Assembly (NCBI GenBank): GCA_026770705.1
Contig: JANJGN010000012.1
Span: 112,282,001-112,346,000 of the forward strand
Source: Isurus oxyrinchus
Lineage: Eukaryota
Length of the DNA stretch: 64,000 nucleotides
Reading direction: 5' to 3'
Shown: positions 1 through 33,000 of the stretch, in pieces
How the letters are laid out: every line of letters starts with the position of its first letter
How positions within the stretch are numbered: the first letter of the stretch is position 1
Program-made: the position numbers

Positions 1-3000
1 AGTATGTGGGGGAAAGGCAGGGAGATGGGCTTAGATCAGATAGTTCCAACTGAAGAGTTAACACTGACAAAGGCACAATGAACTGAATAGTCTCCTTGTG
101 TGCTGTGATTTCTATGGGACACACATAATGTTCATGATGAGCAGCATCCAAATTCATTGTTGGGTTTAACAAGCATGAAATAAAGCTTTTATATTTTGCT
201 GAAGCTTACTGTCAAGCAACGATAGCAAATTTAAAAAAATGCACTTTTGGAAATGTATCTGAGCATATGTATGTGAGATTTTATGTATGTGAGATTTTAT
301 GTATGTGTAATATATATGTGTTCTCCATGGACAAATATCTACTGTCACTAGTCAGCTTTCTTATTAGACAGAAAACTATCAATCAATGTCTAACAAAAGA
401 ACAATTATATGGGATCTAGTTGTCACGGCAATTCCCCATTCTCTGTACTCGACCTCGACCTTGACTACATCTCAATTACATTTTCTTCATTCATGGATCT
501 CACGCTGTCTCAGCCTTGCTAATATCAATCCTCCTCTGTTATGTGGTTAAGGCTCCCCTGAGTTCCAGCATGGTGTCCCTCCCATTCCCAGCTTGTATGT
601 CAGCCCTTTCTTCTCCCTGCTTCAGACATTATGCCCCCTCCCCACCACTGTATTCTTTCTCCTCCTCCAGTTCAGTTTTGATTCTTGGGATTTTCTCTTT
701 AACAGCCTAAGGCTATGCTCATTTTTTCACTCTAGCATCAGACTCTCATCCTTCCCTAGGTCTATTTCCTGGTTTGGTCTCTAACTCTTGTTCATAATAC
801 ATAGAAGAATCACACGGGCCATGAATATGGCTCATTGATTTCCAAGGTAGTTTATAGGAGGGCTGTTTTCTGCCTTTTTACTTTGACCACTGGGAAAATA
901 TAATGCAAATTTGGGTGTGATTCCTTGTGGTGGAGTCACATAATTACTCCAGATATGGATATTTCTTGTTGAGGTACAATTCTATGGATGCCAGTCCCTT
1001 TCATTTACTTCACTTATTGTTTATATGTGAATCTTGACAGTGAGCATCTGCAGGCAACTTAGTCGCTACTGATCATTACACCCAAGCCTGGGCTTCTGCT
1101 CAATCGATATCCACAACAGCCAGCTGGGATGATTGGATGGCTTATTTCACCACTTTGTAATTTGAGGCCCTGAGGATAATTATAGTGTAGCTGTTCCTCA
1201 GACACCTGTTCTCTAAATAAATCTGTAAATCAGTGATGGAGTTTGGTACAGCAATTTGTCATTGACAATTGTGTTTTACATCATCCTGCCTTTTAGTTTG
1301 TTTCAAGGTTAGAATATTGTCACATTGTAATTGATTTTATTGCAGCAAGATGTCTTGCAGTTTCTAATTTCACTGTTTTGAATTAATAGGTTATTTTGAG
1401 ACTTCAGCATTTGCCACAGATTACCGGATTCTGGGTTTTCGGGAATGCTTATCTGAAGTTGCCAGATATCTCAGTGTGACTGAGGGATTAGATCATTCTG
1501 ATCCTTTGAAAGCTCGCCTGGTGTCACATTTAAACACATGTGCATCACAGAGAGAAGTTGTAATTGTCGAGAATAGCCATCAGCTCCTGAGTGCCGGATA
1601 TCCTCACCAGCTTGCACTGACCTCTCTATCTCATTTCAGTGTTGAAGCTCCTGCACATAGCTTTCCTCCTGTAGAACAGAGTCATCACAAAGAATCAATG
1701 CTCAGCAGTATCCATCTCGAACAGTTAAATAAATTGGCCCCCACAGGTTGTGTGGTCCCCATTCTGACAAATGCTGCACATGTGCCATCTTCAATATTTT
1801 CAGTTTCTCCTCTGTCAGCCATACAGTTCCCATTTTCCATGGATCCTCTGCCTGTACTGCCAGCTGCTGCTGCCCGACCTCCAGTGCAAGCTGTAAAAAG
1901 TGGGAAACACTTCTGGGCTACAGAAGTGGGGGCTTTTTAATTTGAATGTGTGTTTATTGTTTTAGAAGGTCAAATGACAAGATTTTACAGAAATCACATT
2001 AAAGTTTGCATTATGCATACAATTTAATGTACACTTCATGATATAGTAACTACGGCTCTGTTAAAGTCAAACGTCTTTATTATAAACTCAATGCAAAGGA
2101 AAACAGTTTTCATTTGATGGGATCATCTCATCAATCTTTGGCTTACTTTAAGGACTTTTAATGGTGCCTTAGCTGACAGCAGGGAAACATTAATTATAAC
2201 AAAAAATTGCAATAATGAGTTTCAAATGTATGTAATTTATTATATATGACTGGAAAAGTCTTACTTTTTATATTGCATGAAATGATGACTCGTGAGTTAT
2301 TAGAGTTTGATAAGAGTTACAATTAAGAGTGTTCAACAGCTCCGTGTGTAATAATACTAACCACTGCAAAGCAACAAGTTCCCAGGTTTGGTTCCTGTCT
2401 GAGCTGAATTACAGTAGGCCTCCTGTCCCCTGAACTAGGAAAGGGAAAAGCCAGCAGTTTTCAAACTCTGAAGCTATGGGGATAAGGTACCAGAGGGTTG
2501 CTGGTTCCTATGAAGCTTCCTTCTTGTGAAATACTGCCTTCATGAAAAACTTACAGCCAGATGTTAAACTAATTGCCTGGACTGGTATAAATACTATTTT
2601 AAGAGAGCTGAATATACCTACCATCTGACATTTACTAATAGGGGTTCTACGATCCCCATTGCAAATTCTGCAATGTCCAGTTGAGGTGTCTATCATTCAG
2701 GTGTTGAGACAAGAGTACCCTCTAGTGTTCCACTTCCTTACTGCAAGTTTGTCAACACACCTGTTCCTATTTGGAAATTTAAGTTCAGCCATATAACTCT
2801 TTCGAGTACAAACCCGTTTCCATCTGTTTCAGATGAAGTTACATTGTTTCATAGTTTGCCATTGTGAGATTTGAACTCTTGATCTTGGGGTTACAAACCC
2901 AGTACCATAAGTTCAGCCATGTAGTGCAATTAATTTTCTGAGTGCTTGTTATGCAAATGGCCTTCCTCCTTGGTCAAGATTAACCCCCCCAATATATGTA

Positions 3001-30000: not shown

Positions 30001-33000
30001 AATTGGGCTGGGCACTTTACACTAGAATGGCAACCTGTTGAACAACCACCTGGGTTTACTGTTAGAATGCTAATCTGTCAACCTAAAAATACTTTTTATG
30101 TTTCCTATTGCTATTTCAGGGTTACCATCCAGATACTAGTTTGAAAGATTACAATGGCATCCATTCCTTCAACTGGCTCCCTTGCAGCAACCCATGACTA
30201 TTACAGGAGTAAGTAATTCTACTGGAAAAATGAGCCTTTTTTTGAGGTTGGAGTAGGAGGAGGAACTATTAAATTACAGATAGCTGATTGGCAGGTTGCA
30301 ATTTGGGCTTATGTCCAACAGAAGCAGCTGTAAGCATGATGAGTAACAACTTGCAATAAATTCATAGCAATGATTTTTTCTTTTCAGTGAGCTTACTAAA
30401 TTTGATAACTGTTTTCTGAACTTTCTATAAACAGCAAGGAGAAAATACTTTTAATACTGTTAATATCCAGCAGGATTGAATCTATAGTTCAAAATTTTTT
30501 GATTCAGCGGTTGTCTGAGTAGATTACAAGCATAAACTGTGGCCCATGAGAATTTTATTTTTTAATTAGCCTATTACTGTTATTGATAACTGGTATATTC
30601 CATAATTGCTAAGATAGTGGAACGCTCCTTTTAAGGGAAAGTGATTTCTGAAAGTCTTGTTTAACCCTGCAAAAAAAAACATCGCCCTCAAGAATGTATG
30701 TAAATATTAACCAATGTAATTTTTCAGTTGAAATTTTTTTTGCTGTTTTAACAGGTCCTGTACATAACTTTGTTCCTTTTCTGCTGGCCTGCTAAATGGG
30801 CTAACAACTTTTTAAATAATTAAGAATTTTGTATGCACATGATTTCAATTCACTAATTATAGTTGGTATACTACACATGAGAATTAATTTTGCTAACAAG
30901 CAAGCACTGTAACTTTATCCCTAAAGTTGAAAGCTGTATTTCTAAAACATGGCTCTGAATCAGAGGCCCCTCAATCCCCAGAAGGTCCAGGGCTGGGGAA
31001 ATCCTGAAGGGCCTTTGCTCTTGCATTGTTATCTGACTTTTCCATAGTTTCTGTATTAGCTTGTATTTGTAGTATTTGATACTCATGGGAATTGTTCCAT
31101 TTTTGAGTATGGTGATGCCTTTCAGCATTCAGGAAATGGAACATGTTTGTCAAGGCAAACTTAAACCATGTTCTAAACATGCTAGGTAGGCTGGGAATTG
31201 AATTCCAGAAGCTTAAATTAGTTCTACAAACTATTATGATAATTAAAATACAAATCTCTTATGCCAGGGCGCCTTGGTTCTGCTTCCAGTAATAGTTCAT
31301 GTGGCAGCTCTGAACACATTGGAGAAGTGATTCCACACCATCCAGGTAAGAGGATTTCTACTAAATACTTGCATAATGCAGTGTGTGTGCCCTTGTCCTT
31401 GCAACACATCTCCTCTTGGATTCCACTCAAACCATTTGCAGATAATTTAAGTTATGCTACTAATAGCCCAAACTGCTTTTATCTAACTAGTTGGTCTTGT
31501 GGTGTTGATCAGATTTCATAAAATTTAGCCTTTAAGTACTTCAGGTGATTATTGAATCACAATGTAATCTGGTCACTTTTAGTCACATTTTATCTACTGT
31601 TATATTGAATTAGTATTTGTAGTGAATGAAATGTTGGGATACATTGGCTGGAGCATAGGAGTTTTTAGCAAATTGGGCTGTGCTTCAGGGAGTTACAGAA
31701 CTGAGGCTATGGTCCCACCACAGACAGCAAGCTCCATTGTAGAAATGGGCAGTAATAATAACGTGACCAGTTTGCAGTCAAGTGCAGGGAGAGATGTAGT
31801 TATATTGGGTTGTTTACATTGGCTTGCATGTCCTGTTCATCACCAAGACACAGCATCCATGGTTAAATTATCCAGTGCCAATTGGGGTGGGGGGTGGGGT
31901 TCAGTATTATTGTAACTTGTGCTGCATTAATTATCTCTCAACCTGCACATCTAGAAGTTTAGTCCTGAAATGGTCAGTGCTCATTTACCTTGAACCTAAT
32001 TGAGTCCATGCCATGGAAGCAAGTTATTGTCAAGTCTTAAAACTTATATAGCATGTACTGTTGCTATCAAGAAAATAAAGTTTGAAACTAGTGTTTAATT
32101 TAGTTGTCACACAACCATACTTTCCTTTATACATGGCAGAGCTTTCAACAAAACCTGTGCTTTTGGACATGTTTTGTTTGGCCTATATCAGAACACAGCA
32201 GACATCATTAGTTGCTAATTTCATGTTTACAGGATTACCAAAGTCTACAGCGGGCCAATGGTGGATCAGTTTTTTCTTTGGGAAAACTCAGAACCACCCA
32301 GTAATGACAACCCTGTCAGAGTCCTCAGAGAGGTAAGATATATCTGTACAATATAATCAATAATAATGGAAGGTGGTAAAGTAGACACTAATTGTGTAAT
32401 GAAGAATGACATCCTATCATTTTCTTTCAAAGGTATGTCAAGTGTGTATAATAAATGCTGCAATAATTTTCTGTCTTTCCAGTGGCAAGATAAACTGTAT
32501 CCTGCCTCAAATGGTGAGGAAACGACATGCCAGTGAGCCCAGCAAACCAACATCTTAATGATTTGGCTTCAACTTCTGAAGAAGACGCTAGGAATTTCAG
32601 GCGTTCCAAAATATTAATGTTTAAAAATAAAGGCTGCTTTCAGTTTCTAATACTTTTTTTAATAAAAACTATATTCCTTGTTTTTTCCATGTAATCAGTG
32701 GGAATTGTTAAGTGTTTGGCATACTTGAACATCTAATAATAAATGAAATACTTTAGCAGCCCATCTGTCCGGGTTTACATTCACTTTTTTCTTTTGCTGG
32801 CTGACCTTGCCAGCCAAACAAAATCAGTAAGTTCTAGATGAATATCACATTCATAGACATGCAGTTAAGGCTTGGCAAGATGATAGAGTAACATGTCGGT
32901 AAGCTTCTCAATAATTTGGCAAGTTCTAAAATCATAACTGCTAATCAATGACACATTACTTTTAAAGTGAAATTAAAATTTGGTAAGATGTAAAGATATG

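Follow-up and report, generated by a model that had tools for sequence, protein, structure and literature searches.

Does the Hey-type exon that stands beside ppdpf in the genome of Isurus oxyrinchus belong to HEY1, HEY2 or HEYL, or does it come from a fourth member of the family? As core effectors of Notch signalling, Hey genes act in the development of the heart, vessels, somites and nervous system. A survey of HES/HEY genes reports, in the part of its text available, three Hey members in most vertebrates; cartilaginous fishes were not sampled, and sharks are not mentioned in that part (Zhou 2012, PMC3396596). The exon lies in a stretch of 64,000 nucleotides without a single N, hereafter the window (assembly GCA_026770705.1, contig JANJGN010000012.1, positions 112,282,001 to 112,346,000 of the forward strand). 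A preliminary description of the window had proposed that the gene may be a fourth ohnologue of the human chromosome 20 type, dating from the two rounds of duplication (2R). We refer to this fourth Hey-type gene as X. It is a real fourth Hey paralogue, and it is probably a 2R ohnologue, sister to HEY1, that was retained in Chondrichthyes only.

The part of X contained in the window is a single exon:

1390..1940, + strand: last (fifth) exon of X, encoding the Orange domain and a C-terminal region that has diverged, with KHFW-ATEVGAF as the tail (AG acceptor, Pfam and tblastn evidence)

The exon is comprised in an open reading frame (ORF) at 1368-1940 (+), within which every Hey motif quoted in the preliminary description was located. 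ETSAFATD (1398-1421), GFREC (1434-1448), EVARYL (1455-1472), TCASQRE (1536-1556) and TEVGAF (1920-1937) all lie on the + strand. It follows an AG acceptor at 1388-1389, which closes an intron of phase 1 at the G|YF junction, and it ends with the stop codon TAA at 1938-1940. The in-frame translation of 1392-1937 (P0001, 182 residues) displays a match to the Pfam family Hairy_orange over residues 15-51, with an expectation value (E) of 2.2e-13 and 50.7 bits (cut-off 25.3). The motif positions, the acceptor and the domain match thus bear out the exon and its coordinates as originally described. P0001 is identical at 181 of 182 residues to a protein of Carcharodon carcharias named 'hey1-like' (P0002; E 1.8e-113), a match that excludes chance as the source of the Hey exon; compared with the protein of Cetorhinus, 5 of 182 residues are different. 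The window is DNA of a lamniform shark.

A tblastn search with full-length P0002 placed its residues 98-280 at 1389-1937. The remaining part (residues 1-97), which holds the bHLH (basic helix-loop-helix) domain, had no tblastn match anywhere in the 64-kilobase (kb) window, and motif scans for it were also negative; the bHLH exons of X therefore lie 5' of base 1. They are visible in Carcharodon, outside the window, where P0002 contains PF00010 and the basic region RKKRRGIVEKRRRDRIN, with the Gly typical of Hey proteins at the position occupied by Pro in Hes proteins. At the other end of the protein the TE(I/V)GAF motif is present, as the exon finishes with ATEVGAF directly before the stop codon, and all 10 orthologues compared agree in its T, V, G and F. 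The YRPW tetrapeptide is absent; the window has KHFW and the orthologues have KHLW, KRLW or QHLW, the W alone being invariant. Because HEYL proteins also depart from YRPW, this loss is no bar to Hey membership. According to the available part of Zhou 2012 (PMC3396596), Hey genes consist of five exons with intron phases 2-0-0-1. The phase-1 last intron of X, the single one visible in the window, agrees with this pattern, which argues that X is not a retrocopy.

Counterparts of X occur from chimaera to sharks, rays and skates. Of the 39 proteins retrieved with the exon as query, the top 15 are X-type (13 entries named 'hey1-like' from sharks, rays, skates, sawfish and Callorhinchus, and two unnamed skate-like proteins), and the HEY1 and HEY2 proteins of bony vertebrates ranked below them, at E 1.8e-19 or weaker. 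Among the 120 matches listed for the full X protein, 16 X-type proteins stand on top; the named proteins among the other 104 are all HEY1 or HEY1-like, and HEY2 and HEYL do not appear there. When 1.84 billion cluster representatives were searched with a profile built from 10 X proteins, three X-type clusters were retrieved (E 5e-170, 2.8e-115 and 2.9e-115), after which the scores drop to 9.2e-74 and to ordinary Hey proteins. No X-type protein from outside Chondrichthyes was found among these representatives, bony vertebrates and cyclostomes included.

Identity to Carcharodon X is 60-90% among the 10 orthologues aligned, and their bHLH is near-invariant. Between Carcharodon and Callorhinchus the X proteins are 70% identical and the HEY1 proteins 86%; X evolves about twice as fast as HEY1, yet under constraint. 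Two contigs of 983 and 999 bases each encode a complete X protein of 267-268 amino acids, and since the whole coding sequence of five exons fits on contigs of about 1 kb, these would represent spliced transcripts.

The preliminary description had read the Orange domain as a mosaic of HEY1-like (DYR.LG) and HEY2-like (HL.TCASQRE) residues. This is literally right, in that the motifs are present, but it claims too much for them. In the alignment DYR.LG is also found in HEYL and in the Hey proteins of hagfish, lamprey and amphioxus, and, being common to all of these, represents the ancestral state rather than a mark of HEY1. TCASQRE is present in both bony-vertebrate HEY2 proteins aligned, whereas both chondrichthyan HEY2 proteins aligned have TYASQRE. 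An Orange domain assembled by recombination was rejected, the shared motifs being ancestral or scattered states. The states specific to X are ETSAFATD (with the variant ET.AFATD), a basic region that contains RGIVEK, and KHFW or KHLW instead of YRPW.

X is 84-92% identical to its paralogues in the bHLH, and in the Orange part of the exon it is 71-75% identical to HEY1, 68-73% to HEY2 and 52-66% to HEYL. By similarity and by tree the closest paralogue is HEY1, with which X shares the bHLH-Orange layout, the phase-1 last intron and 90-92% of the bHLH. HEY1 differs from X in having DAHALAMD in place of ETSAFATD and YRPW in place of KHFW, in the basic region, where X has RGIVEK and KKRR, and in its location on another contig. 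Within Carcharodon the two proteins are 55% identical overall, a value similar to the 53% between shark HEY1 and fox HEY2. HEYL resembles X in a tetrapeptide that is no longer YRPW (QRSW in Heptranchias, CRLW in a turtle) next to a conserved TE(I/V)GAF, but it constitutes a clade of its own (100/98), and in Heptranchias it is 49% identical to X and lies on a different contig.

Two further candidates for identity with X, the teleost 'hey1-like' protein and 'Hey4', were rejected. The 'hey1-like' protein of teleosts, the second teleost hey1 copy, bears the same automatic name as X and shares YFE and SQREV with it, which makes it the best non-chondrichthyan match to the exon; it is, however, a teleost-level duplicate of hey1 that nests within neopterygian HEY1 (99/95 and 100/95). 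The 'hey1-like' protein of Engraulis has a long branch and an unsure placement. The 'Hey4' of older surveys has a name that hints at a fourth Hey, but it is a human gene name and designates another gene; we take it to be HELT, which belongs to the bHLH-Orange genes and lacks the Hey tail. In the available part of a chicken bHLH survey it figures as a human gene for which chicken has no homologue (PMC2862960).

HEY1, HEY2 and HEYL all exist in cartilaginous fishes in addition to X. HEY1 was identified in at least 12 chondrichthyan species (e.g., Carcharodon, Cetorhinus, Heptranchias, Mobula and Callorhinchus), HEY2 in Pristiophorus, Leucoraja and Rhinoraja, and HEYL in Heptranchias and Pristiophorus; the HEY1 of Carcharodon is situated on a contig other than that of X.

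Phylogenetic trees were all computed with IQ-TREE under the LG+C20 model with posterior mean site frequencies (PMSF), on sets that include one of 51 rows and the largest clean set, of 57 rows. X proteins form a clade restricted to Chondrichthyes with support of 100/100 in four of four trees. HEY1 forms a clade without X at 95/94 (51 rows) and 94/86 (57 rows), the chondrichthyan HEY1 proteins joining those of bony vertebrates; the corresponding values are 100/99 and 100/98 for HEY2, and 100/98 in both sets for HEYL. At the next level X groups with HEY1 (76/63 with 51 rows, 96/81 with 57), and HEY2 and HEYL group with the hagfish Eptatretus (96/85 and 92/83), in a trichotomy in the smaller set and with HEY2 and HEYL as sisters in the larger (91/72). 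The three classical genes are each monophyletic without X in three of four trees, and in the fourth, to which lamprey and Myxine sequences were added, HEY1 is broken not by X but by the joining of the long-branch Engraulis protein with lamprey. With a fully supported clade of its own, and with a separate HEY1 in Carcharodon, X does not nest within any of the three as a genome's only copy of it.

The tree that scores best has the form ((X,HEY1),(HEY2,HEYL)), the symmetric shape that two duplication rounds predict. Fixed sites agree with the placement: four join X with all HEY1 proteins, one (K39, where all HEY1 have R) sets X outside HEY1, and none joins X with chondrichthyan HEY1 alone, the count in the control pattern being zero as well.

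The cyclostome Hey proteins (P0157, P0178, P0336, P0203 and P0339) are of at least two types. Eptatretus 'hey1' grouped with HEY2 and HEYL at 95/87, 96/85 and 92/83; the 'hey1-like' proteins of lamprey and Myxine grouped with HEY1 and X in one tree, a join flagged as a long-branch one and not relied on. If the cyclostome placement holds, the split between HEY1/X and HEY2/HEYL predates the divergence of cyclostomes.

The neighbourhood of X provides a second line of evidence. The window contains 501 ORFs of at least 50 amino acids and 125 of at least 84, and 20 of the latter were scanned against Pfam. The statement of the preliminary description that the next protein-coding gene is ppdpf holds, as these 20 ORFs, a scan that short exons would escape, otherwise yielded transposon remains only. 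The gene lies downstream of X on the same strand, with 28 kb between the X stop codon and the ppdpf ATG, and its features are:

28000..29250, no strand: CpG island 5' of the ppdpf exon with the ATG, with CpG observed/expected of 0.55-1.25 and a G+C fraction (GC) of up to 0.63
30154..30208, + strand: coding exon of ppdpf that carries the start codon (ATG 30154-30156; GT donor at 30209), its 18 residues being an exact prefix of P0358
31268..31345, + strand: ppdpf coding exon 3 (splice sites; PF15060 E 4.5e-9, 37.0 bits; P0358 offset 19)
32233..32332, + strand: ppdpf coding exon 4 (splice sites; PF15060 E 1.9e-9, 38.2 bits; P0358 offset 45)
32483..32558, + strand: last ppdpf coding exon (stop TAA 32556-32558; P0358 offset 78)

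The gene model was treated exon by exon (PF15060 cut-off 27 bits). It comprises four coding exons with canonical splice sites, all four translations are exact substrings of the Carcharodon protein 'PPDPF B' (P0358), and AATAAA signals follow the stop codon at 32626, 32661 and 32738; the stop codon itself coincides with the end coordinate of the preliminary description. The CpG island, which stands out from whole-window values of 0.30 for CpG observed/expected and 0.43 for GC, would contain the ppdpf promoter and a non-coding first exon. For exon 4, a search with a 40-residue stretch returned seven PPDPF-family proteins, all chondrichthyan, which their sources call PPDPF, PPDPF B or PPDPF-like. 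The nearest Atlas clusters are named PPDPF (score 0.94), a lead at the level of the family only, and no relative was found in the PDB.

Two transfer RNA (tRNA) sequences of the tRNA-Glu(CTC) type are located inside the CpG island, at 28039-28111 (+) and 28361-28434 (-), head to head and about 250 bases apart, with Rfam scores of 56.9 bits each. They could be real tRNA genes or the heads of short interspersed elements.

The association of X with ppdpf is conserved across cartilaginous fishes. The longest contigs carrying X and the main ppdpf cluster are equal in size in each of the 10 species for which both sizes are listed (Carcharodon, S. canicula, Heptranchias, Hemiscyllium, Rhincodon, Mobula birostris, Amblyraja, Narcine, Rhinoraja and Hemitrygon), and we take contigs of equal size to be the same contig; the HEY1 contig differs in size from that of X in all nine species compared. 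In Hemitrygon X and ppdpf have consecutive accession numbers, and a gene model of Pristis pectinata fuses X exons with PPDPF exons. A fusion that mirrors the latter was observed in two HEY1 models of bats (P0054 and P0068), which are joined to a PF10246 domain, presumably from the mitochondrial ribosomal protein gene adjoining HEY1. The neighbours of the X and HEY1 loci are thereby shown to differ.

In the human genome PPDPF is found at 20q13.33 and PPDPFL at 8q11, the genes TPD52, TPD52L1, TPD52L2, STMN2 and STMN3 lie near Hey regions or PPDPF, and KCNQ2 is paired with KCNQ3 (20,8) and KCNQ4 with KCNQ5 (1,6). Human HEY1, HEY2 and HEYL are assigned to chromosomes 8, 6 and 1 in the available part of the 2012 survey (PMC3396596). 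On balance, we favour a history in which the ancestor of jawed vertebrates possessed four Hey genes in two pairs, (HEY1,X) and (HEY2,HEYL). A 2R duplication would have produced X as the sister of HEY1, and X would have remained beside ppdpf, between the eef1a2 and ppdpf neighbourhoods of a region matching human 20q13.33. It would then have been lost once, on the stem of bony vertebrates, and kept in cartilaginous fishes for more than 400 million years. The chromosome 20-type ohnologue proposed at the outset is in line with the separate clade, the symmetric topology and the ppdpf linkage; the date of the duplication is less secure, as the topology tests leave room for a younger duplicate of hey1.

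Several observations weigh against this history. In the approximately unbiased (AU) test, X as sister to chondrichthyan HEY1 alone was unrejected (log-likelihood difference 4.26, p 0.144; 2.44, p 0.222), and the pairings of X with HEY2 and with HEYL were marginally disfavoured only (p 0.074 each, with log-likelihood penalties of 11.5 and 13.9). The stem of X is long (0.48-0.63 changes per column), and long-branch effects may have pulled X out of HEY1. The backbone collapses once the lamprey and Myxine sequences are added, and the age of X has no orthologue in bony vertebrates or cyclostomes as an anchor. The separate hey1, hey2 and heyl whose presence the preliminary description had proposed to confirm are all present at the level of the class and not as a full set in one genome: the four genes were seen together in no single species, Carcharodon having X and HEY1, and Heptranchias X, HEY1 and HEYL. 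The region of X would be of the chromosome 20 type, with PPDPF and not PPDPFL, on the basis of source names, the Atlas lead and the human map. Neither eef1a2, ptk6, stmn3 nor tpd52l2 was found in the 64-kb window by regular-expression scans for kinase, EF1A and stathmin motifs or by the Pfam scan of 20 ORFs. Finally, extra 'ppdpf-like' copies lie off the contig of X and ppdpf in Heptranchias, two Mobula species and Scyliorhinus torazame (P0345, P0346, P0364, P0348 and P0350). Those retrieved by the exon 4 search (P0345, P0346 and P0348) are 91-94% identical to exon 4 of the window, and the extra copies may be recent copies or retrocopies.

The main rival to a 2R origin is a duplication of hey1 at the DNA level on the chondrichthyan stem, the copy having moved beside ppdpf and evolved so fast that it looks ancient. 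The unrejected AU topology allows it, HEY1 is the most similar paralogue (all named non-X proteins among the 120 matches listed are HEY1 or HEY1-like), X is known from Chondrichthyes only, and both the long stem and the doubled rate fit a fast-evolving copy. We nevertheless consider it unlikely, because the best trees exclude X from HEY1 at 95/94 and 94/86, no fixed site is shared with chondrichthyan HEY1 only and one has a non-HEY1 state, and X and HEY1 lie on different contigs in nine of nine species; moreover, a chance landing by a PPDPF-family gene, in the sole region of the paralogon that in other vertebrates lacks a Hey gene, would be a coincidence.

That X is instead older or otherwise related, either a lineage of its own from the first duplication round (1R) or a sister of HEY2 or HEYL, with the affinity to HEY1 an artefact of slow HEY1 evolution, is distinctly improbable. 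X and HEY1 are united at just 76/63 in the 51-row set, the alternative pairings are unrejected at 0.05, and X has KKRR (basic region) and NT-C (Orange domain) in common with HEY2-type sequences. KKRR is, however, also the state of amphioxus and hagfish, and so ancestral; the union with HEY1 rises to 96/81 in the largest clean set, four fixed sites tie X to all HEY1 against HEY2, HEYL and the outgroups, and the pairings with HEY2 and HEYL carry the log-likelihood penalties given above. A decaying, non-functional copy, with the database models as annotation artefacts, is scarcely credible. The loss of YRPW to KHFW would suit it, the annotations are made by machine only, and no expression study of X was found in the literature searched; against this stand the open frame and intact splice site, the full-length orthologues that range from chimaera to skates, nearly invariant in the bHLH and conserved at the W, T, V, G and F of the tail, and the contigs of about 1 kb that carry the entire spliced coding sequence.

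Full-length Carcharodon X retains the Hey-type basic region, the helix-loop-helix and the Orange domain, and with these intact X is predicted to be a dimerising repressor that acts as a Notch effector. To judge from its domains, it would most likely dimerise with itself or with other Hey/Hes proteins, bind E-box/class-C sites and repress Notch-responsive targets. The replacement of YRPW by K/Q-H/R-F/L-W, with TEVGAF kept, suggests that the partners recruited by the tail may differ.

The remainder of the window is marked by repeats. The Pfam scan of the 20 ORFs yielded three matches to RVT_1 and one to GIY-YIG (below the cut-off), and 16 ORFs had no match. Reverse-transcriptase remnants of the long interspersed element (LINE) type were identified at 36290-37659 (-) and 46479-47408 (-), with RVT_1 E-values of 9.3e-21, 2.4e-8 and 3.5e-18, and their 3' parts are 72% alike (36032-36300 versus 46009-46277). 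Another element is present in copies at 38.4-39.9 kb, 44.3-45.7 kb and 49.7-51.3 kb that are 95-98% alike, and its ORF includes a GIY-YIG-like stretch of 20.4 bits (cut-off 22.6); we presume this three-copy element to be Penelope-like. Its third copy contains a perfect inverted repeat of 564 nucleotides (49967-50530 and 50716-51279, 100% complementary); it results either from insertion head to head or from an artefact of assembly. An inverted pair at 8217-9467 and 23684-24400, about 80% similar and about 15 kb apart, brackets a stretch at 20-23 kb with ORFs that look retroviral or integrase-like by eye; none of the three ORFs tried matched Pfam.

X has already been machine-annotated as 'hey1-like' in many genomes, and the present comparison shows that this label hides a separate orthology group. 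We found no description of a fourth Hey gene of cartilaginous fishes in the portions of the literature available, and supplementary tables of ohnologues may list X. Such a gene is absent from the available portions of PMC2862960, PMC8320183, PMC3396596, PMC7249433, PMC9839844, PMC11979771 and bioRxiv 10.1101/2023.04.14.536701.

If a 2R origin is correct, X completes the quartet of Hey genes, and ((HEY1,X),(HEY2,HEYL)) would offer a clean case in which 1R and 2R can be dated against the cyclostomes. It would also add one more loss on the stem of bony vertebrates, which matters for the ancestral Notch circuitry inferred from shark and skate embryos. X would constitute a natural tail-altered Hey protein, usable to probe the role of YRPW, and its rewired tail, with KHFW for YRPW, may equip the chondrichthyan Notch pathway with an output absent from other vertebrates.

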